Shown: piece after piece, positions 1,433-17,959 of the stretch
Position numbering within the stretch: the first letter of the stretch is position 1
Layout: each line of letters opens with the position of its first letter
The notes under the pieces: generated by a model
Database searches by the model: none
What the model was told of the DNA's origin: nothing
Seen by the model: the letters and a program-made list of their open reading frames with translations, nothing else
Position numbers and translations under genes: made by a program
IMG/VR virus record: IMGVR_UViG_3300020056_000010
Length of the DNA stretch: 20,000 nucleotides
Source of the DNA: an uncultured virus (IMG/VR IMGVR_UViG_3300020056_000010)
Taxonomy: Duplodnaviria > Heunggongvirae > Uroviricota > Caudoviricetes
Strand: one strand, 5' to 3'

Positions 1433-2434
1433 ATGGTAGATTTTGTAGACATTCAATATGCTCAAATGTTGTCGGGCCGCCTCGACAACTTTCGAATACG
1501 GCATACTTCCCCTTATAAAATTAATTTTAGATGTCCAATTTGTGGTGACTCTCAAAAGTCCCGCTCTAAGGCCCGTGGTTGGCTTCTAGAAAAGGATAAC
1601 AGGTTCACCTATTATTGCCATAACTGTGGCGCTTCACAGGGCTTCCAGTACTTTCTAAAGTCTATCGATCCACTACTCTATAATGATTATGTTGCTGAGA
1701 AGTTTGTAAATAAAGCAAACAATACTATCAAAGATGACGTTACTCAGTTTCAAACTAAAAAGCCAGTCTTTCAGAAAGATCCTCTAAAAAAATTAAAAAA
1801 AGTGAGCCAACTCGCTCATAATCACGCGATCGTAAGATATATAAAGAAGAGGGGTATTCCACCTCATCATCATTATCGTCTTTACTATGCACCAAAATTC
1901 AAAACTTGGATTAATGAAATTATCCCAAATAAGTTTGAACATGTCGGTAAAGATGAACCCCGTCTGGTGATCCCTTTCTTAGATGAGAAAGGTAAAGTCT
2001 TCGGCGTTTCTGCTCGTGGGTTTAATCCTGACGGGATCAGATATATAACTATTATGTTTGATGAAAGGCCAAAGATCTTTGGTCTCGACAAAGTCAATTT
2101 TAACGAGCCTTACTATATAGTTGAAGGTGCGATTGACTCTTTCTTTTTGTCTAATGCCATCGCTATGAATGGCGCAGAAGGAAACGGTAATGCTGCAAAT
2201 GAACGTGCAATATACGTATTTGATGCTGAACCACGTAATAAAGAAATCCATAAACGTATGGATAAAGTGATTAAGAACGGTCATAAGATTTGTATATGGC
2301 CAACCGATGTACCTGGCAAGGACATCAATGAAATGTATCTAAACGGTCTTAATGACATTGAAAAGATTATCGAAGATAATACTTATCAGGGTTTGCAAGC
2401 CGAATTGAAGTTTGCCGCATGGCGCAAAGTATAG
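1433..2434 (+). CDS. DNA primase, T4 gp61-like
   Basis: Zinc-binding motifs NFRCPICGDS and YYCHNCG; TOPRIM motifs IVEGAIDS, FDAEPRN and KDINEM. ATG 1433 preferred (GGA upstream) over GTG 1415. Confidence 0.95.
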   Translation: MVDFVDIQYAQMLSGRLDNFRIRHTSPYKINFRCPICGDSQKSRSKARGWLLEKDNRFTYYCHNCGASQGFQYFLKSIDPLLYNDYVAEKFVNKANNTIKDDVTQFQTKKPVFQKDPLKKLKKVSQLAHNHAIVRYIKKRGIPPHHHYRLYYAPKFKTWINEIIPNKFEHVGKDEPRLVIPFLDEKGKVFGVSARGFNPDGIRYITIMFDERPKIFGLDKVNFNEPYYIVEGAIDSFFLSNAIAMNGAEGNGNAANERAIYVFDAEPRNKEIHKRMDKVIKNGHKICIWPTDVPGKDINEMYLNGLNDIEKIIEDNTYQGLQAELKFAAWRKV

Positions 2435-2446
2435 GAGTATTGAATT

Positions 2447-3133
2447 TTGCATGCACGACTTATTTCCCATAGCCAACCCGCAGGTCGTATCTACGCAGGA
2501 GAACCTGCATTCAAAGGATTGGAAAACATCCAGGACCTCATCGCATATTGCGCCCGTGTCTCGAATCCATCCAACCAAGCTAACACCAAGACAACTCCAA
2601 AGTTACTTGGATATCTCATCAAACACAAACACTGGTCACCATTCGAAATGGCAAGCGCCTGCATCGAAGTCGAAACAACCAGAGACATCGCAAGACAGCT
2701 CCTCAGACACCGTTCGTTTTCATTTCAAGAGTTTTCTCAGCGGTATGCTGACGTTCGCGATCTTGGCGATGATTTTGTTCTAAGAGAGGCTCGTCTACAG
2801 GATACTAAGAATCGTCAAAATAGTATTGATGTAGATGATCCAAAGCTATCAGCAGAATGGAGAATGAGACAACAAGATGTAATCGACAAGGCAAAAGAAC
2901 ATTACAATTGGGCTATTGCAAATGGTATTGCAAAGGAACAAGCAAGAGCTGTTTTGCCAGAAGGATTAACTAAATCACGTTTATATGTTAATGGTACTAT
3001 TCGTTCTTGGATTCATTTCATTGAATTGCGTTCAGGTAATGGAACACAAAAAGAACACATGGAGTTGGCTCGTGCAATTGCAGAAGCTATATCCAAAATT
3101 TATCCAGAAATAACCAATTTTGTTCAAGAATAA
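2447..3133 (+). CDS. thyX: FAD-dependent thymidylate synthase
   Basis: ThyX signature RHRSFSFQEFSQRY, plus HWSPFE and AKEQARAVLP. SD AGGAG precedes a TTG start. Confidence 0.96.
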   Translation: MHARLISHSQPAGRIYAGEPAFKGLENIQDLIAYCARVSNPSNQANTKTTPKLLGYLIKHKHWSPFEMASACIEVETTRDIARQLLRHRSFSFQEFSQRYADVRDLGDDFVLREARLQDTKNRQNSIDVDDPKLSAEWRMRQQDVIDKAKEHYNWAIANGIAKEQARAVLPEGLTKSRLYVNGTIRSWIHFIELRSGNGTQKEHMELARAIAEAISKIYPEITNFVQE

Positions 3134-3156
3134 CTACATATAGTTAAAAAATACGT

Positions 3157-3164
3157 AATAAATA
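3157..3164 (+). promoter_or_regulatory. Putative T4-type late promoter (AATAAATA) upstream of nrdA
   Basis: Intergenic, one mismatch to TATAAATA. Confidence 0.45.
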
Positions 3165-3194
3165 CTACATGTTGAGAGAGAAGGAAAATGAAGC

Positions 3195-5492
3195 ATGCTG
3201 CAGGTCGTAAAGCGTGACGGGTCAAAAGAAGAATTAAATATCGAAAAACTACACAAGGTTGTCTTTTTTGCTTGTGATGGAATTTCAGGAGTAAGCCCGT
3301 CAGAAGTTGAAATCAAAAGTCAAATTCAGTTTTTTAATGGTATGACGACAAAGGAAATTCAAGAAACCTTAATTAAAGCAGCAGCTGACTTAATTTCTGA
3401 AGAAACACCAAACTATCAATATGTTGGCGGTCGCTTAGTAAACTATGCGCTTCGTAAAGAAGTGTACGATCATTACGAGCCTTGTCACGTAAAAGAACTT
3501 GTCGAGCGTAATATTGAGATGGGATTTTACGATCCTGAATTGATTACATATTACGATGATGATGAGTGGGACAAGATTAACGGATTCATCAAGCACCAGC
3601 GAGATGAGAATCTTACATACGTTGCTATGGAACAGTTGCGCGGCAAGTACCTTTGTCAAAACAGAGTAACTGGCGAAATTTTTGAAACACCACAAATGTG
3701 TTACATTTTGATTGCTGCTACTCTTTTCAATAACTACCCAAAAGAAACCCGTTTGAAATGGATTAAGGACTATTATGACGCTATCTCTCTTCACGATATC
3801 AGCCTTCCTACTCCTGTTATGGCAGGTGTACGTACTCCTCAACGACAGTTTAGCTCCTGTGTTCTTATCGAGACTGATGACTCTCTTGACAGCATTAATG
3901 CTACTTCTAGTAGCATCGTTAAGTACGTATCCCAAAAAGCAGGAATCGGTATTGGGGCTGGTTCAATCCGCGCTATTGGATCACCTATCCGCAAGGGCGA
4001 CGCCTATCACACAGGAGTAATTCCTTTCTATAAGCACTTCCAATCCGCAACCAAGTCTTGTTCTCAAGGCGGTGTTCGTGGAGGTGCTGCAACATTGTAC
4101 TATCCAATCTGGCACTATGAAGTAGAAGATCTTCTTGTATTGAAAAACAATAAAGGTACTGAAGATAATCGTGTTCGACATATGGATTACGGAGTACAGT
4201 TTAACAAGCTAATGTACGAGCGTTTGATTACAGGCGGCGAGATTACTTTGTTCTCTCCTGCAGATGTTCCCGGCTTGTATGAAGCCTTCTTTGCAGACCA
4301 AGATAAGTTTCGTGAACTATATGAAACTGCTGAGCGCAACACTCGCCTTCGTAAGAAGTCTATTCCTGCTGCTCAACTCTTTTCTATGTTTATGGAAGAA
4401 CGTAAAAACACAGGTCGTATCTATCTACAAAACGTTGATAATGCAAACGATCATGGATCATTTATTCCAGAAGTTGCACCTATTCGCCAATCAAATCTTT
4501 GTGCTGAGATCGACTTGCCAACTAAACCATTGAATGATATCAATGATCCGGACGGTGAGATTAGTCTATGTACATTGTCTGCAATTAACTGGGGTAACGT
4601 AAAATCTCCAGAAGATTTTGAAAAAGCATGTACACTTGCTGTCCGCGGTCTAGATGCTTTGCTTTCATATCAAAACTATCCAATCCTAGCTGCTCAGTTG
4701 TCTACTGAAAAACGCCGTCCTATTGGTGTTGGTATTATTAACTTTGCTTATTGGATGGCCAAGCATGATCTATCCTATCAAGACATCACTCCAGAGGGGC
4801 TAGAATTGGTCGATGAGTACGCTGAGGCATGGTCATACTATTTAATTAAGGCTTCTGCTGATTTAGCTGTTGACATGGGATCTATTCCTGGTATTATGGA
4901 AACTAAGTATGGACATGGAATCACTCCTAACCAAACTTATAAGAAAGATCTTGACGAACTTGTTAAGCATAAAGAACGCATGGATTGGAAAGGATTACGT
5001 AAACAGCTCAAAAATACAGGTATTCGTAACTCTACACTTATGGCTCTTATGCCTTCGGAAACATCTGCTCAGGTGGCAAATGCAACAAACGGTATTGAAC
5101 CGCCTCGTAGTTTGATTTCTGTAAAACAATCTAAACACGGTGTATTGAAGCAAGTTGTGCCTCAGTACTTCCACTTTAAAAATAAGTATGATCTACTATG
5201 GGATCAAAAATCTCCTCAAGGTTATCTAAAGATTATGGCAGTATTGCAAAAGTATATTGATCAAGGTATCTCAGTCAATACTAGTTACAACCCACAATTC
5301 TTTGAGGACGAGAAAATTCCAATGAGTGTTCTTCTACAAGACCTACTTATGTTCTATAAGTATGGTGGAAAGCAACTCTATTACTTTAATACTTATGATG
5401 GCCAAGGCGAGCTTGACGTTGACAAGATGACTGAAGAAGCTTTACCACAAGGTGAACTAGACGACGCAGACTGCGAAAGCTGCACTATTTAA
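3195..5492 (+). CDS. nrdA: Class Ia ribonucleotide reductase alpha subunit
   Basis: N-terminal ATP cone (VVKRDG), PTPVM, FSSCVL, SQGGVRGG, QSNLCAEI (radical Cys), MPSETS, LYY and C-terminal CESC. No intron or intein apparent. Confidence 0.98.
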   Translation: MLQVVKRDGSKEELNIEKLHKVVFFACDGISGVSPSEVEIKSQIQFFNGMTTKEIQETLIKAAADLISEETPNYQYVGGRLVNYALRKEVYDHYEPCHVKELVERNIEMGFYDPELITYYDDDEWDKINGFIKHQRDENLTYVAMEQLRGKYLCQNRVTGEIFETPQMCYILIAATLFNNYPKETRLKWIKDYYDAISLHDISLPTPVMAGVRTPQRQFSSCVLIETDDSLDSINATSSSIVKYVSQKAGIGIGAGSIRAIGSPIRKGDAYHTGVIPFYKHFQSATKSCSQGGVRGGAATLYYPIWHYEVEDLLVLKNNKGTEDNRVRHMDYGVQFNKLMYERLITGGEITLFSPADVPGLYEAFFADQDKFRELYETAERNTRLRKKSIPAAQLFSMFMEERKNTGRIYLQNVDNANDHGSFIPEVAPIRQSNLCAEIDLPTKPLNDINDPDGEISLCTLSAINWGNVKSPEDFEKACTLAVRGLDALLSYQNYPILAAQLSTEKRRPIGVGIINFAYWMAKHDLSYQDITPEGLELVDEYAEAWSYYLIKASADLAVDMGSIPGIMETKYGHGITPNQTYKKDLDELVKHKERMDWKGLRKQLKNTGIRNSTLMALMPSETSAQVANATNGIEPPRSLISVKQSKHGVLKQVVPQYFHFKNKYDLLWDQKSPQGYLKIMAVLQKYIDQGISVNTSYNPQFFEDEKIPMSVLLQDLLMFYKYGGKQLYYFNTYDGQGELDVDKMTEEALPQGELDDADCESCTI

Positions 5493-5515
5493 CATTTAAA
5501 CATAAAGGAATTCAA

Positions 5516-6661
5516 ATGAGCGTTTTTGACGTACAAAACCGTGTTGACCATACATCTGTCGCATCTTTTCTAGATCCCAGCGGTGGCCCAACGATTCAAC
5601 GTTATGACACTTTGAAGTACAAACAGTTTGATCAGTTGACTGACAAACAACTAGGATTCTTTTGGCGCCCTGAAGAAGTAGACATCTATCAGGATGCTAA
5701 GGATTTTAAAGCACTTACATCACACGAGCAACACATCTTTACTTCAAACTTGAAGCGTCAAATTTTGCTCGATTCTGTACAAGGCCGTGCTCCGGCTGAA
5801 AGCTTTGGTAGTATTGTTTCATTGCCTGAGCTTGAGAACTGGATCATTACTTGGACATTCTCTGAAACAATTCATAGCCGTTCATACACTCATATTATTC
5901 GCAATGTATATTCTAACCCATCTAAAATCTTTGATGAGATGCTAGACATTCAAGAAATTATCGATTGTGCTGACGATATTTCTAAACACTACGACGATCT
6001 CATTCAGATGGCGGGGTGGTATAATCTTCTTGGTGAAGGTACCTTTGAATTGAATCAAAAGGGTATGAAAGAAGGTACTGAAGTTAAGGTTGATTTGTAT
6101 GAACTTAAGAAAAAGCTTTGGCTAACTCTTATGAGTGTTAACATTCTAGAGGGAGTACGATTCTATGTCTCTTTTGCTTGCTCTTGGGCTTTTGCGGAAC
6201 TTAAGAAGATGGAAGGAAACGCGAAAATTATCAAACTAATTGCTCGCGATGAGAATCTACACCTTGCATCTACTCAAATGATGTTGAAACTACTTCGTAA
6301 GGAAGATCCAGACTTTGAGAAGATTGCTGCAGAAACAGAACAAGAATGTATTCAAATGTTTGTAGACGCCGTAGATCAAGAGAAAGCTTGGGCAGAGTAT
6401 TTGTTTAAAGATGGCTCAATGATTGGTTTGAATACGGAACTTCTAAGTCAATACATTGAATTCATTGCATCAAAACGAATGACAAATGTAAAGTTAGAGT
6501 CTCCATACGGTAAACCTCAAAATCCGTTGCCGTGGACTCAAAAATGGATTTCAGGAGCAGAGGTACAGGTTGCACCTCAAGAAACTGAAATTACTAGTTA
6601 TGTACAAGGTGGAACTAAACAGGACGTATCAACAGACACATTCAAAGGATTCAGCTTATGA
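5516..6661 (+). CDS. nrdB: Class Ia ribonucleotide reductase beta subunit
   Basis: FFWRPEEV, LDSVQGR, ETIHSRSY, LEGVRFYVSF, RDENLH, VAPQETEITSY. Confidence 0.98.
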   Translation: MSVFDVQNRVDHTSVASFLDPSGGPTIQRYDTLKYKQFDQLTDKQLGFFWRPEEVDIYQDAKDFKALTSHEQHIFTSNLKRQILLDSVQGRAPAESFGSIVSLPELENWIITWTFSETIHSRSYTHIIRNVYSNPSKIFDEMLDIQEIIDCADDISKHYDDLIQMAGWYNLLGEGTFELNQKGMKEGTEVKVDLYELKKKLWLTLMSVNILEGVRFYVSFACSWAFAELKKMEGNAKIIKLIARDENLHLASTQMMLKLLRKEDPDFEKIAAETEQECIQMFVDAVDQEKAWAEYLFKDGSMIGLNTELLSQYIEFIASKRMTNVKLESPYGKPQNPLPWTQKWISGAEVQVAPQETEITSYVQGGTKQDVSTDTFKGFSL

Positions 6662-6909
6662 TTTACATATGGGGAAAGGCAGCATGCCCTAGCTGCGAAA
6701 AAGCAAAACGTACACTAGATACGCATAACATCAAATATGAATATCGCCAACTCGGTGTAGACTTTGAACGAGAAGATGTCATTGCAGAGTTTCCAGAAGC
6801 TCGTACATTTCCGCAAATTGTTATCAACGGTCAAAAGATTGGTGGCTATGAACAAATGGTGAAATATATCGAGGATACTGGATATACAGGAACTGGATAT
6901 TCATTATAA
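6658..6909 (+). CDS. Glutaredoxin (NrdC-like)
   Basis: CPSC active site, TFPQI, IGGY. ATGA overlap with nrdB. Confidence 0.93.
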   Translation: MIYIWGKAACPSCEKAKRTLDTHNIKYEYRQLGVDFEREDVIAEFPEARTFPQIVINGQKIGGYEQMVKYIEDTGYTGTGYSL

Positions 6910-6941
6910 ATACTTAAAAACAATTAAGAGTATTTGTAATG
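6902..6941 (+). promoter_or_regulatory. T4-type late promoter embedded in a start-codon-sequestering hairpin
   Basis: Perfect TATAAATA at 6905-6912. CATTATAAATACT (6902-6914) pairs with AGTATTTGTAATG (6929-6941): 13 bp with one G-U, including the hemA ATG. Confidence 0.75.
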
Positions 6942-8141
6942 GACCGCGACCTACTACATTATTTTGAGCAGACTATTGGTGACTTCAAAGAAGATGGTCG
7001 CTATCGTGTATTTAACGATATTATAAGAGAAAGGGGGCAGTTTCCAAAAGCCATTTGGTATGGGAAATATGCCCCTAAAAACATTGTGAACTGGTGTTCT
7101 AATGACTATCTTGGCATGGGCCAAAATGAATACGTCATTAGTGCAATGCATACAGCATTAGATCAAACCGGCGCTGGTTCTGGTGGCACTCGTAACATTG
7201 GTGGTACATCTCAGTATCATGTTACACTTGAAAGAGAGCTTGCAACATTACATAATAAAGAAGCAGCTCTCTTGTTTTCTTCGGCATATGTAGCCAACGA
7301 ATGGGCCCTTGTTGCTCTGAGTAGAATAATTCCAAACATTTGTTTTATCTCTGATAATAAAAATCATGCTTCTATTATTATGGGAGTGAAACACAGCAGA
7401 GCTGACAAGATTATCTTTCCACACAATGATATGGATGAACTTGAGTTAGCTTTGCAAACCGCAACAATGTCTAATCAGACACCTGTTATTGTTTTTGAAT
7501 CAGTTTATAGTATGGATGGAGACGTAGCACCAATTGAAGATATTTGCGACCTTGCAGACAAGTATGGCGCAATCACCTATATAGATGAGGTACACGCAGT
7601 AGGAATGTATGGCGATACGGGAGCAGGATACTGCGAATGGTTAGGCGTACAACATAGGATTGATATAATCAATGGAACATTGGGAAAAGCCTTTGGGGTT
7701 CAAGGTGGTTATATTGCTGGCAATAGTGCTGTTATTGACGCTATTCGGTCCGTGGCTTCTGGGTTCATCTTTACAACAAGTATCTCGCCCGTCCTCTGCG
7801 CAGGAGCAATCGCCGCCATCAAATATCTCCGTGACGCTACCGGATTAAGAAAACAGCACCAGAAAAAGGCGGAACAATTAAAATATATGTTAGGAGCTGC
7901 TGAGATTCCAGTTCATCAAAATGCTTGCACCCATATTGTACCAGTGATGGTAAATGATGCATTTAGATGTAAAACTGCGAGTGACCGTCTATTGAATGAG
8001 TTTGGAATTTATATACAACCTATAAATAGTCCGACAGTTGAAGTTGGTACAGAAAGATTGCGTATAGCTCCTACTCCATATCATACTGATGTTATGATGG
8101 TAGAACTAGTGACAGCTTTGAAAAAGGTATTACATAAATGA
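6939..8141 (+). CDS. hemA: 5-aminolevulinate synthase (PLP-dependent)
   Basis: ALAS-specific motifs [57 protein letters not shown] (PLP lysine), FIFTTS and GTERLRI. Confidence 0.95.
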
Positions 8142-8194
8142 ATCAACTTGAAGCCGCATTTTTCGGCAAAACATTATGGAAGAAAGAGAGTAAA

Positions 8195-8614
8195 ATGACT
8201 AAATTGAAAAAAGCATTCTGGTTCGTATGTGGAATGCTATGTTTAGGTATTGCATATCTAGGCGTAATTCTACCAGGTATTCCGTGGAGTACTCCGATCC
8301 TTGGCGCAGCATTCTGCTTTGCTAAGTCGAGCGAAAAGTTCCACAACTGGATTATGAACCACAAAACATTTGGCCCATTCATTACAGAATGGCAAACATA
8401 TAAAGTATATCCACAAAAAGCAAAGTATATTATGATGGCAGTCATGTCGACTTCGTTGGCTGTGATGTACTTTGGAACTGGCAATCCTATGGCAACATTA
8501 TACTTGTTTATTTTGTTTGCTTTGATTGTCACTTGGGCATGGAGATTTCCAGGCTCGAAAGAAGAAGCACAGCGTCGTATTGATGCGGGAGAGAAGCTTG
8601 GCTGGTTAAAGTAA
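8195..8614 (+). CDS. DUF454/YbaN-family inner membrane protein
   Basis: LGIAYLGVILPGIPWSTPILGAAFCFAKSSEKFHNWIMNHKTFGPFI matches the YbaN pattern; several TM segments. The start could alternatively be 8138. Confidence 0.82.
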   Translation: MTKLKKAFWFVCGMLCLGIAYLGVILPGIPWSTPILGAAFCFAKSSEKFHNWIMNHKTFGPFITEWQTYKVYPQKAKYIMMAVMSTSLAVMYFGTGNPMATLYLFILFALIVTWAWRFPGSKEEAQRRIDAGEKLGWLK

Positions 8615-9180
8615 TGCATTGGACTCTAGATACACATAAGAACATGTACCCAAACAATTTCAATGATGGGATGAATCGTTGGGTAGTTGAAAATCTTAAA
8701 CCGACAACGGTTTTAGAATTTGGCTGTGGAATTGGTTGGTATTGCGAGTTCTTTGCTAATCATGGAGTCCAAACAGTACATGGCATCGAACCGGCTCCTA
8801 TGGATCCTGAGAAGTTTTCACATGAAAATGCTACTCAGTTTACTTGGGATGCTACAGTAGATCCCGAACCAGAAGGTATCCTGCCAGAGTATGACATGAT
8901 TTTTTCTGTAGAAGTAATGGAACATGTCGCTCGTCAGTATCATACAAAGATTATCGATTGGATGCATTCTAAAAATCCTCGCGTAGTGGTTTTCTCGGCA
9001 GCAACACCAGGCCAAGGTGGTCACGGTCATATTGCTGAGAGACCACAGGCCGAGTGGGTAGGAGAATGGACCAGCAGAGGATATGCCGTAGATACTGAGC
9101 TTACGAAACAAATTAAGGCTTCTTGCAATAGAAGAAATATTAATCACGTTAAGAATTTACACGTGTACAAACCGATATAA
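8614..9180 (+). CDS. Class I SAM-dependent methyltransferase
   Basis: Motif I VLEFGCGIG, YDMIFSVEVMEHV, FSAATPGQGGHGH. Confidence 0.88.
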   Translation: MHWTLDTHKNMYPNNFNDGMNRWVVENLKPTTVLEFGCGIGWYCEFFANHGVQTVHGIEPAPMDPEKFSHENATQFTWDATVDPEPEGILPEYDMIFSVEVMEHVARQYHTKIIDWMHSKNPRVVVFSAATPGQGGHGHIAERPQAEWVGEWTSRGYAVDTELTKQIKASCNRRNINHVKNLHVYKPI

Positions 9181-9183
9181 ATA
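9176..9183 (+). promoter_or_regulatory. T4-type late promoter
   Basis: Perfect TATAAATA at a gene boundary upstream of SD AAGGAG and ATG 9217. Confidence 0.7.
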
Positions 9184-9216
9184 AAAGTATATTATGACTT
9201 TGATGAAGGAGATATT

Positions 9217-10242
9217 ATGGCAAAGCGCATTCTCATTACGGGTGGCGGTGGTTTCATTGCGCACCACCTAATTAACCAAGTACTTATCCGAACAGACTGG
9301 GATGTTGTTACACTAGATCGTCTAGATTATAGTGGCAATCTAAATCGTTTGCATGATCTTCTTCAAGATCGTACCCCAGCTGAACGCAAACGAGTTCGTA
9401 CAATTTACCACGATTTGAAAGCAGAAATCAACCCAATGCTCGAAGCAGACATTGGCCCAGTTGATATTGTTGCACACCTTGCAGCAGGTTCTCATGTGGA
9501 TCGTTCTATTGAACGTCCTATGGAATTTGTAATGGATAACGTCGTAGGTACATGTAATATTCTAGACTATGCTCGCCGTCAGGATAACCTAGAAAGATTC
9601 TTGTATTTCTCAACAGACGAAGTATTCGGTCCTGCCCCTGAAGGTGTCAAGTATGATGAGTATGATCGTTATAACTCAACAAACCCATACTCAGCATCTA
9701 AAGCAGGTGGTGAGGAACTCGCCGTAGCATATCAGAACACTTATAATATGCCAATCTATATTACGCATACTATGAACGTGTTCGGTCAACGTCAACATCC
9801 AGAAAAGTTTATTCCTCTATGTATTCGTAGAGCTCGTGATGGTGACACAATTACAATTCACTCTGATGCTACTAAAACAATTCCAGGCAGCCGTCACTAT
9901 ATCCATGCTGAAGATGTAGCTGATGCAACACTATTCCTACTTGAAAACGACCGCACACTGGATATGACAAACAACTCTGGAATCAAATGTCCTAAGTTCA
10001 ATATTTGTGGTGCAACTGAATTGAATAACCTTGAACTTGCTCAAATGATTGCAGATGCTCAAGGAAAGGAACTCAAGTATGAATTTATGGATTTCCATAG
10101 CAGCCGTCCTGGTCACGATCTCCGCTATGCTTTATCTGGAGAAAGAATGGCAAATATGGGATGGACTCCACAACCAGTTGCCGATCGCATTGCAGAAGTA
10201 GTACATTGGACTCTAGATAATACAAGGTGGTTAGACATATGA
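9217..10242 (+). CDS. NAD-dependent NDP-glucose 4,6-dehydratase (RmlB-like extended SDR)
   Basis: ILITGGGGFIA, HLAAGSHVDRSI, STDEVFG, YSASK catalytic motif, QHPEKFIP, RPGHDLRY. Confidence 0.92.
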   Translation: MAKRILITGGGGFIAHHLINQVLIRTDWDVVTLDRLDYSGNLNRLHDLLQDRTPAERKRVRTIYHDLKAEINPMLEADIGPVDIVAHLAAGSHVDRSIERPMEFVMDNVVGTCNILDYARRQDNLERFLYFSTDEVFGPAPEGVKYDEYDRYNSTNPYSASKAGGEELAVAYQNTYNMPIYITHTMNVFGQRQHPEKFIPLCIRRARDGDTITIHSDATKTIPGSRHYIHAEDVADATLFLLENDRTLDMTNNSGIKCPKFNICGATELNNLELAQMIADAQGKELKYEFMDFHSSRPGHDLRYALSGERMANMGWTPQPVADRIAEVVHWTLDNTRWLDI

Positions 10243-10820
10243 GCTTTTTACAAATGATTGATAAGGAATACGAAGATGCATGCAATACGTTTTCCGATAT
10301 TAATGAACACTTACCAGTTCTATATGAACTAGGTATGGAGTGCGACAGCATTACAGAAATGGGTACTCGTCGTGGAGCGAGTACTCGTGCTTTCTTAAGA
10401 ACAAATGCAAATAAGATTAGAGCATATGATGTACGTATGTTTGACCATGTAGAAAATCTATTTGTGCATGCAAGAGAAGCTGGTAAGGACGCACAGTATA
10501 TTAAAGCTAATGTGCTTGATATTGAGATCGACGAATGCGATCTATTGTTTATCGATACTTGGCATGCTAATCATCAGCTTACTCAAGAGCTTAAACTTCA
10601 TGGAAACAAGGCTCGTAAGTATCTTGTATTTCATGATACTCATACGTACGCAGTACGAGACGAAAAAGAAGATTGGCAACATTACAGAGATAAGCACTCA
10701 ATTCCAGGTGAAGGATTGCTTCCTGCCATCATTAACTTTCTGATTGCAAACCGCCATTGGCGATATAAAGAAATCAGAACAAATAACAATGGACTAAGTA
10801 TTTTAGAGAGAGTTGGATAA
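10239..10820 (+). CDS. SAM-dependent methyltransferase (Methyltransf_24-like)
   Basis: EMGTRRGAST, DLLFIDTWH, VFHDT, NNNGL. ATGA overlap with the upstream gene. Confidence 0.75.
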   Translation: MSFLQMIDKEYEDACNTFSDINEHLPVLYELGMECDSITEMGTRRGASTRAFLRTNANKIRAYDVRMFDHVENLFVHAREAGKDAQYIKANVLDIEIDECDLLFIDTWHANHQLTQELKLHGNKARKYLVFHDTHTYAVRDEKEDWQHYRDKHSIPGEGLLPAIINFLIANRHWRYKEIRTNNNGLSILERVG

Positions 10821-17338: not shown

Positions 17339-17470
17339 ATGAAAGAGCTTTTACAAGTAGTAGGTATCGTCGTAATCATAGGTGGTATCTCTATCTACAC
17401 ATACCACGTTTGGTCTGATTGCTTAAATGAAAATTCTGTATTTACTTGCATGAGAATGCTTAACAAATAG
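17339..17470 (+). CDS. Small membrane protein (43 aa), not in the ORF track
   Basis: MKELLQVVGIVVIIGGISIYTYHVWSDCLNENSVFTCMRMLNK, ATG 17339 to TAG 17470. Starts 1 nt after the upstream stop. Confidence 0.65.
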   Translation: MKELLQVVGIVVIIGGISIYTYHVWSDCLNENSVFTCMRMLNK

Positions 17471-17517
17471 TCTAATAAGTCCAATAAATAGTCCATTAAA
17501 ACAATATTGGACTATTT
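17465..17517 (+). promoter_or_regulatory. Late promoter plus triple anti-RBS hairpin element
   Basis: AATAAATA at 17483-17490. Three upstream segments are each complementary to the RBS region TATTGGACTATTT (17505-17517). Confidence 0.72.
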
Positions 17518-17521
17518 TTAT

Positions 17522-17959
17522 ATGTGGTATTATAATGGAGAGGAATTTACCTCTGAGATGATTGAAGACTATGTCGGATTCGTGTACTTGATTACAAACT
17601 TATCTGACAACAAGAAATACGTTGGTAAGAAGACGCTTATTTCTAAACGCAGACTTCCTCCTCTCAAAGGTAAAACAAGACGTAGAACTAAGATCGTTGA
17701 GTCTAATTGGCAAGACTATTTTGGTTCTTCAGAAGAAGTTAACGCTTTAGTGGAAGAGCATGGACGAGACAACTTTAAACGCGAAATCTTACATCTGTGT
17801 AAGAGTAAAGGCGAGATGAGTTACCTCGAATTGAAAGAACAAATGGAAAGAGAAGTATTGCTAAACGACGAGTACTATAACGGCATACTTCAAGTAAAGA
17901 TACATCGTTCTCATGTTCAATCACTAAAAAAAGTTGACAAAAAAGCGCAACTGGTGTAA
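17522..17959 (+). CDS. GIY-YIG family endonuclease (Seg/DenA-like)
   Basis: GFVYLITN...KKYVGKK, YFGSS, FKREIL, YYN. ATG 17522 follows GGA at 17509-17511. Confidence 0.85.
   Translation: MWYYNGEEFTSEMIEDYVGFVYLITNLSDNKKYVGKKTLISKRRLPPLKGKTRRRTKIVESNWQDYFGSSEEVNALVEEHGRDNFKREILHLCKSKGEMSYLELKEQMEREVLLNDEYYNGILQVKIHRSHVQSLKKVDKKAQLV

Follow-up and report, generated by a model that had tools for sequence, protein, structure and literature searches.

In bacteriophage T4, genes e, soc, 49 and I-TevI are validated cases of a late promoter combined with a hairpin over the ribosome-binding site (RBS), as set out in the review text of Uzan & Miller (2010; PMC3014915), which agrees with what an initial annotation of the DNA studied here had said of these four genes. 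The same text lists homing endonucleases masked by hairpins, namely Aeh1 mobE, which lies inside a ribonucleotide reductase (RNR) gene, and T4 segB. Here, we analyse a stretch of 20,000 nucleotides (the window) from the uncultured virus IMGVR_UViG_3300020056_000010, corresponding to bases 5151-25150 of a 25,150-base IMG/VR virus contig with a CheckV completeness of 12%, in which a gene for 5-aminolevulinate (ALA) synthase, hemA, is preceded by a hairpin that contains a box of the T4 late type. On in silico evidence, we think it reasonably probable that this hemA is under a T4-type gp55 late promoter and RBS-hairpin gate and is translated mainly from its own late transcript.

The gene itself has also been described from phages. 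The viral ALA synthase valaS is reported as an auxiliary metabolic gene of aquatic T4-like, pelagimyophage-like phages, and ALA synthase activity was demonstrated for one freshwater phage homologue, which is a different protein from that encoded here (Wegner et al., 2024, Nat Commun; PMC11480375). The main text of that paper names only the tac and T7 promoters; it is silent on hairpins, timing, RNR linkage and DUF454, as well as on any promoter of the phage gene. The valaS gene and the hemA of the window belong to the same gene family and the same phage type.

The hairpin over the hemA start

The elements of the hemA leader are as follows.

6658-6909, + strand: glutaredoxin gene (grx), with its stop codon TAA at 6907-6909 within the late box and the 5' arm
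6900-6915, + strand: 5' arm of the hairpin, present only on RNA initiated upstream
6905-6912, + strand: TATAAATA, matching the T4-type (gp55) late promoter box, at -13 to -6 by the T4 rule
6918, + strand: predicted late +1, an A, in the loop 6916-6927, placed by the T4 rule and by A-enrichment
6928-6943, + strand: 3' arm of the hairpin, covering the GAG of a weak Shine-Dalgarno (SD) sequence and the hemA ATG at 6939-6941
6939-8141, + strand: hemA (valaS), 5-aminolevulinate synthase of 400 residues, assigned by profile score and structure match

The initial annotation had proposed that 6902-6914 base-pairs with 6929-6941 over 13 bp with a single G-U, burying the hemA ATG and part of the weak SD. 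The sequence bears out the pairing, of CATTATAAATACT with AGTATTTGTAATG, at exactly these coordinates, with the G-U at T6907/G6936. The stem predicted by RNAfold is longer (16 bp, with three G-U pairs and a 12-nt loop), and its 3' arm takes in the ATG together with three of the five bases of the SD (AAGAG, 6926-6930), so that the proposed burial holds as well. The minimum free energy (MFE) of the segment 6880-6960 is -18.2 kcal/mol, compared with a mean of -7.71 (s.d. 2.49) for shuffled sequences, and none of 200 shuffles equals it. The hairpin is kept in both the MFE and the centroid folds of the 221-nt segment 6820-7040. The antisense strand folds more weakly (-14.1, z = -1.98), as expected because the sense-strand RNA structure contains G-U pairs.

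Folding with and without the 5' arm, as put forward in the initial annotation, distinguishes the two RNA forms: the long one has z = -4.21, the one starting at 6918 z = +1.07. The RNA 6918-6998 is thus no more structured than its shuffles, and its centroid fold leaves the AUG open. The predicted cost of unpairing positions -15 to +4 at hemA is 15.5 kcal/mol on the long RNA and 4.1 kcal/mol on the RNA from 6918.

A search for exact repeats with an 8-base exact seed did not list this hairpin, because the G-U pair interrupts the seed, and an Rfam search of 6000-8500 at E <= 1 returned no family. A reading of the hairpin as an intrinsic terminator was considered and rejected, since no terminator is called at 6900-6943 and no U-tract follows the stem.

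Identity of the ALA synthase

The 400-residue open reading frame (ORF) scores 565.1 bits on TIGR01821, for which the cut-off is 338.55, and the next-best families, Kbl and BioF, each fall below their own cut-off. It aligns over residues 8-397 with the solved ALA synthase 7x98_A (E = 5e-132), with the motif of the pyridoxal phosphate-binding lysine reading GTLGKAFG in the phage ORF and GTLAKAFG in 7x98_A. By profile and alignment, the ORF is a genuine 5-aminolevulinate synthase. A tblastn search of GenBank phages with HemA found only Kbl/BioF-like genes of below 37% identity.

The late box as a promoter-like signal

The T4 late box spans -13 to -6, and an A(-13) variant is present at 9 of 50 T4 sites (PMC2988020); the position given for T4 in the initial annotation agrees with this source. 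The initial annotation had also placed a perfect box inside the 5' arm, and TATAAATA is indeed contained in full within it. The number of such boxes is of little weight in itself: the window has four copies of TATAAATA where 1.67 would be expected, and four or more are present in 13 of 200 shuffles, which is not significant alone. The significant part is the placement and not the count. The coding strand of the 25-kb contig holds 11 copies of ATAAATA and the other strand none; nine of these 11 fall 10-60 nt upstream of an ORF start, and several copies, among them the ones ahead of hemA and the epimerase gene, overlap or adjoin the preceding stop codon.

The same placement is seen in two complete hemA-bearing relatives, G001 (221 kb) and G002 (201 kb, with terminal repeats), in which 42 of 90 and 43 of 93 occurrences of ATAAATA, respectively (46-47%), lie 10-60 nt upstream of ORF starts. 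For 20 other 7-mers of the same composition, used as a control, the share in that position is mostly 4-16%, and only those that overlap the box reach 26-28%. ATAAATA is preceded by T at 53 of 94 sites, and an A is enriched six nucleotides after it (62 of 94 sites); at hemA, this A is A6918. Both complete relatives encode homologues of T4 gp55 (E = 3e-24 and 7e-23; 45% and 42% identical). These distributions make a strong in silico case for the box as a positionally enriched, strand-specific and promoter-like gene-start signal in the contig and its relatives.

The late start that the initial annotation had expected near 6918 coincides with the A-enriched position and lies 3' of the masking arm; it stays a prediction, with no pile-up of starts in the RNA-library contigs described below. 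The T6907/G6936 wobble causes the minus strand to read TACAAATA instead of TATAAATA, which would avoid an antisense promoter.

Unmasking energies and other genes with predicted gates

The effect of losing the upstream arm was expressed as an unmasking energy: the ensemble free-energy cost of unpairing -15 to +4 on a long RNA (from 40 nt upstream of the box) minus that on an RNA starting 6 nt after the box. Over 95 sites with a box and an ORF in three genomes the median is 1.3 kcal/mol (mean 3.2, s.d. 4.7), and hemA of the window, at 11.4 kcal/mol, ranks ninth. T4 genes treated in the same way give similar values where a gate is established, with 12.9 and 15.6 kcal/mol for the two late boxes of gene e and 12.5 for gene 49, which has AATAAATA; denV gives 0.5.

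The 13 top-ranked sites belong to 12 genes: an endolysin, three SegE-like endonucleases and one HNH endonuclease, a PAAR-like protein, a virion protein, hemA twice and three small genes of unknown function, one of which has two boxes. By this modelled measure, the phage group appears to apply the T4 device to T4-typical targets, with hemA as part of the set. SegE-like endonucleases have predicted gates in the window contig, G001 and G002, and in G002 an HNH endonuclease does too, which resembles the situation of Aeh1 mobE and T4 segB. The SegE-like gene of the window is located as follows.

17483-17959, + strand: leader and gene of a SegE-like GIY-YIG endonuclease, with AATAAATA at 17483-17490 overlapping a 5' arm at 17486-17498

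The 3' arm of this hairpin (17505-17517) ends 4 nt before the likely ATG at 17522, and the unmasking energy is 9.5 kcal/mol. Two alternative 5' arms, 17465-17477 and 17486-17498, are both complementary to 17505-17517, and it is the second that overlaps AATAAATA. The likely start of the gene is ATG 17522 and not TTG 17507. A further hairpin, 830-841/874-885, holds ATAAATA (864-870) in its loop upstream of a 162-residue ORF at 892, with an unmasking energy of 6.5 kcal/mol.

In T4 e, soc, 49 and I-TevI, as predicted for hemA of the window, a helix sequesters the SD and/or AUG; the late promoter is located within or beside its 5' strand, and late transcripts lack that strand. ATAAATA starts 33 nt upstream of the ATG in both T4 e and hemA. 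The cargo differs: it is an auxiliary metabolic gene here and a lysis, recombination, capsid-decoration or homing gene in T4. The masking arm of hemA, unlike those of T4, also includes the stop codon of the upstream gene. The window phage is of a distant marine T4-like lineage, in which the gate is predicted, whereas that of T4 has been shown by experiment. Both hemA and Aeh1 mobE sit in an RNR gene neighbourhood, but hemA, unlike mobE and segB, is not a mobile endonuclease, and a rationale of autoregulation or splicing does not apply to it.

hemA loci in relatives

We surveyed 57 viral-contig and 80 metagenome-contig loci; a usable start was present in 125 of these, which represent 76-77 distinct upstream contexts. 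The exact hairpin of the window is found only in seven near-identical contigs. In an alignment of eight near-identical sequences (the shortest ending at 7256), there is no variable column in 6889-6943, compared with 18 in the next 313 nt (hemA) and 76 in 250 nt of grx. Four of the loci (L059, L089, L090 and L091) differ from the window in grx at 68 of 250 positions up to 6888, are identical to it from 6889 through the hairpin and differ in hemA at 17 of 313 positions. The different grx allele up to 6888 followed by identity from 6889 therefore points to a recombination junction at the edge of the hairpin. As judged from these alignments, hemA travels with its leader.

Five lineages share the grx-hemA order: the window, L059, L095, L152 and L012. 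TATAAATA lies on the grx stop codon in four of them and CATAAATA does so in L012. Four of the five retain a TTA leucine codon and the non-coding ATA that comes after the stop. The spacers differ and different helices fold over the AUG. HemA identity to the window is 83% for L095, 80% for L152 and 81% for L012. The predicted costs of opening the start on the long and short RNA in the four other lineages are 15.8/5.0, 8.5/3.7, 14.0/5.0 and 8.9/3.3 kcal/mol, and the occlusion of the five starts lies at percentiles 96, 99, 98, 92 and 82 of 597 background genes. A related arrangement occurs in another setting in G002 (HemA identity 77%), where a 158-nt spacer separates hemA from a DUF932 gene upstream and the upstream stop is 107 nt before the box; the 5' arm holds AATAAATA and the 3' arm the SD, and the costs of 22.9/5.9 correspond to an unmasking energy of 16.9 kcal/mol.

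A box lies 10-70 nt upstream of hemA in 17 of the 76 contexts. The idea that hemA is always masked was rejected, as only 12% of 77 contexts exceed the 90th percentile of the background. In a group of distant hemA lineages (65-72% identity; L125, L128, L131, L138, L140, L060, L144 and L153), ATAAATA starts 11-14 nt before the ATG; a gp55-type transcript would therefore be leaderless, or nearly so, in these lineages.

Candidate sources of read-through RNA

The following elements bear on RNA that might enter hemA from upstream.

1377-1404, + strand: sigma-70 consensus promoter-like site (TTGACA-16-TATAAT, 12/12), just upstream of the primase gene; a consensus match only
3157-3164, + strand: AATAAATA, a late box in its A(-13) variant, 37 nt ahead of the nrdA start
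3195-5492 and 5516-6661, + strand: nrdA and nrdB, class I ribonucleotide reductase (Pfam PF02867/PF00317/PF03477 and PF00268)

The site at 1377-1404 is a candidate source of early read-through RNA. On the + strand between it and hemA, the terminator-like sites are limited to two weak ones inside nrdA (4272 and 4711). Long upstream RNAs may be produced both early and late. RNA evidence was taken from four salt-marsh RNA-library runs compared with 2400-10300; these data consist of contigs of low depth, in which starts, strand and level are not visible. One such contig bridges 6762-6990, although libraries of this kind can hold DNA.

A probable late gate on hemA

In the mechanism that we favour, TATAAATA at 6905-6912, overlapping the grx stop codon, would act as the gp55-type late promoter of hemA itself. 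RNA begun further upstream, either at the sigma-70-like site or at AATAAATA before nrdA, would carry both arms, and the 16-bp hairpin would then pair the hemA AUG and part of the weak SD and block 30S binding. RNA from about 6918 would begin in the loop and lack the 5' arm, leaving the initiation region open. Translation of hemA, and probably of the DUF454 and methyltransferase genes that follow it, would thus take place mainly from a promoter-proximal, replication-coupled late transcript. Sequence and folding models give good in silico support for the structure, for the box with its promoter-like distribution, for the energy contrast and for the recurrence in relatives; what we infer is that the box is active as a promoter, that transcripts start at the predicted +1, that read-through RNA exists and is silent, and that the timing is late.

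Several observations weigh against this mechanism or narrow it. Marine T4-like phages put late-type boxes before replication genes, and nrdA of the window too has one, AATAAATA. The contrast is therefore one of own promoter versus read-through, not simply of late versus early. The initial annotation had held that hemA is silent on the nrdA-nrdB-grx transcript and switched on only late; the structure supports such a gate, but the late box of nrdA weakens the early/late part of the claim, and late timing of hemA follows only from the promoter class. The RNA-library contigs are without pile-ups of starts or ends, although contigs cannot reveal starts. No gp55 was found in the 25-kb fragment to which the window belongs or in eight other fragments, which at 12-73% completeness make its absence uninformative. 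A ribosome terminating at grx would melt the hairpin, so that masking on read-through RNA may be leaky. Compensatory changes upstream of hemA, which the initial annotation had proposed to look for, do not occur within any one hairpin register: the hairpin is invariant in the eight near-identical contigs and the distant lineages use other registers. In 38 of the 76 distinct contexts, hemA abuts an upstream ORF on the same strand (gap of at most 15 nt) with no box within 300 nt. For the representatives checked, Pfam assigns this ORF to the RNR genes (nrdB, a grx-nrdB fusion or a large subunit of 550-600 residues), and a TAATG overlap is often present. Late-only ALA synthesis is therefore no general need of these phages. 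Over all 77 contexts, occlusion exceeds the background only slightly (median 6.4 versus 5.25; Mann-Whitney p = 0.013). The ORF caller was also crude, so some start sites are approximate.

The initial annotation had itself raised translational coupling as an alternative, in which the hemA start stays closed until a ribosome finishing grx unwinds the hairpin, tying hemA output to grx translation. The position of the stop codon in the 5' arm is confirmed by the ORF 6658-6909, and the alternative stands, though we consider it unlikely. The masking arm could be reached by a ribosome stopped at grx in L152, L095 and L012 as well, where a grx-nrdB fusion lies upstream, a hairpin without a box extends across the stop up to the hemA ATG, and many relatives join hemA to the upstream ORF (RNR where sampled) by an overlap or a gap of 0-4 nt. 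What coupling does not account for is the box, which is kept at the grx stop in five lineages along with the non-coding ATA after the stop in four, or the recurrence of the same design where coupling is impossible: the upstream stop is 107 nt before the box at G002 hemA and 147 nt before it at the SegE-like gene of the window. At ten of the 13 top-ranked sites, 21 nt or more separate the upstream stop from the box, and at 30 nt past the grx stop the hemA AUG is far for re-initiation. Coupling and a late gate are not mutually exclusive and may act jointly.

The hairpin might otherwise be an element of RNA ends, stability or module boundaries, either a 3' stem-loop protecting the nrd-grx message or the edge of a recombination cassette, with no important effect on hemA translation. 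Cassettes of a promoter and stem-loop are found at module borders of T4-type phages, and the junction at the hairpin edge in L059-type contigs fits such a role; we nonetheless regard it as improbable, given that the 3' arm lies exactly over the AUG, that the helices of L152, L095 and G002 also cover the AUG or SD, and that the stem lacks a U-tract, a terminator call and an Rfam match. That the hairpin is a chance AT-rich intergenic palindrome that happens to contain TATAAATA seems highly improbable: the stem is AT-rich and the count of boxes in the window is unremarkable, but no shuffle folds as well, the box shows strong positional and strand bias, and the design recurs in relatives and on T4-typical classes of gene.

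Implications for phage ALA synthesis

The device is textbook T4 biology and the gene is a published auxiliary metabolic gene. What is new is their combination, its recurrence at hemA in two settings and the company of endolysin and homing endonucleases, so that the advance is one of scope and not of principle. The 2024 description of phage ALA synthase, which introduced it as a new auxiliary metabolic gene, did not settle the manner or timing of its expression. The present locus yields a concrete hypothesis, in which hemA is translated only from the transcript of a gp55-type promoter and is masked on read-through RNA. It also suggests wide use of the classic T4 gate among distant marine T4-like phages, which would apply it to an endolysin, to homing endonucleases, to a PAAR-like protein and to a metabolic gene.

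Whether the timing of phage ALA synthesis is itself under selection is a more speculative and, in our view, doubtful proposition. It would mean that gating has evolved or been kept in at least two unrelated settings (grx-hemA and DUF932-hemA), placing hemA in the same regulatory class as endolysin and homing endonucleases. If this were true, premature, feedback-insensitive ALA synthesis would be costly, for example through porphyrin phototoxicity or a drain on succinyl-CoA, or, alternatively, a late burst of tetrapyrrole would serve a late step. In lineages where hemA is fused to RNR genes, that arrangement would then represent a second, dose-limited solution. Real timing of this kind would constrain ideas on why phages boost tetrapyrrole synthesis.

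Gene neighbourhood of hemA

All 41 ORFs called in the 25-kb contig are on the + strand. The 5' part of the window contains a spanin-like gene and a gp61-type primase gene, followed by thyX, nrdA, nrdB and glutaredoxin. The primase shares about 44% identity with its counterparts in T4-like cyanomyophages, and a megablast search with 5500-9200 gave no match among GenBank phages. The 400-residue ORF is followed by genes for a DUF454 membrane protein and a methyltransferase, then by sugar-nucleotide and glycosyltransferase genes and a cell-wall hydrolase gene; a SegE-like GIY-YIG endonuclease, a deoxynucleoside monophosphate kinase and a 2-oxoglutarate-Fe(II) (2OG-Fe(II)) oxygenase are also encoded in the window. 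The elements immediately downstream of hemA are as follows.

8138-8614 and 8614-9180, + strand: genes for the DUF454 membrane protein and the methyltransferase, each start overlapping the stop before it
9176-9183, + strand: next TATAAATA, overlapping the methyltransferase stop and 41 nt upstream of the epimerase start

Because their starts overlap the preceding stops, the DUF454 and methyltransferase genes probably share the hemA transcript. At the next box, the contigs of two RNA runs begin at 9208/9209, about 20 nt past the +1 predicted from the box at 9176, and a third run bridges the position, which is a weak hint at most.

Of 43 distinct proteins encoded downstream of hemA, 27 are DUF454 (YbaN-like) proteins whose genes come directly after hemA; they occur over the range of 65-100% HemA identity and in varied upstream contexts, and the start often overlaps the hemA stop (for example at 8138-8614 of the window, L008:5185-5661, L009:5182-5655 and L131:1726-2145). 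The DUF454 protein may be a functional partner of ALA synthase. The abutment of RNR genes and hemA (for example in L007:2865-3992, L009:2332-3990 and L026:2718-3974) looks like a conserved, so far unexplained linkage. Neighbouring genes of hemA in other lineages encode, among others, an alternative oxidase, a ferritin-like protein, IscA-like Fe-S assembly proteins and 2OG-Fe(II) oxygenases (L034:5172-5741, L039:5183-5623, L100:1781-2125 and L026:5185-5790), which suggests a theme of iron and redox functions around phage hemA.

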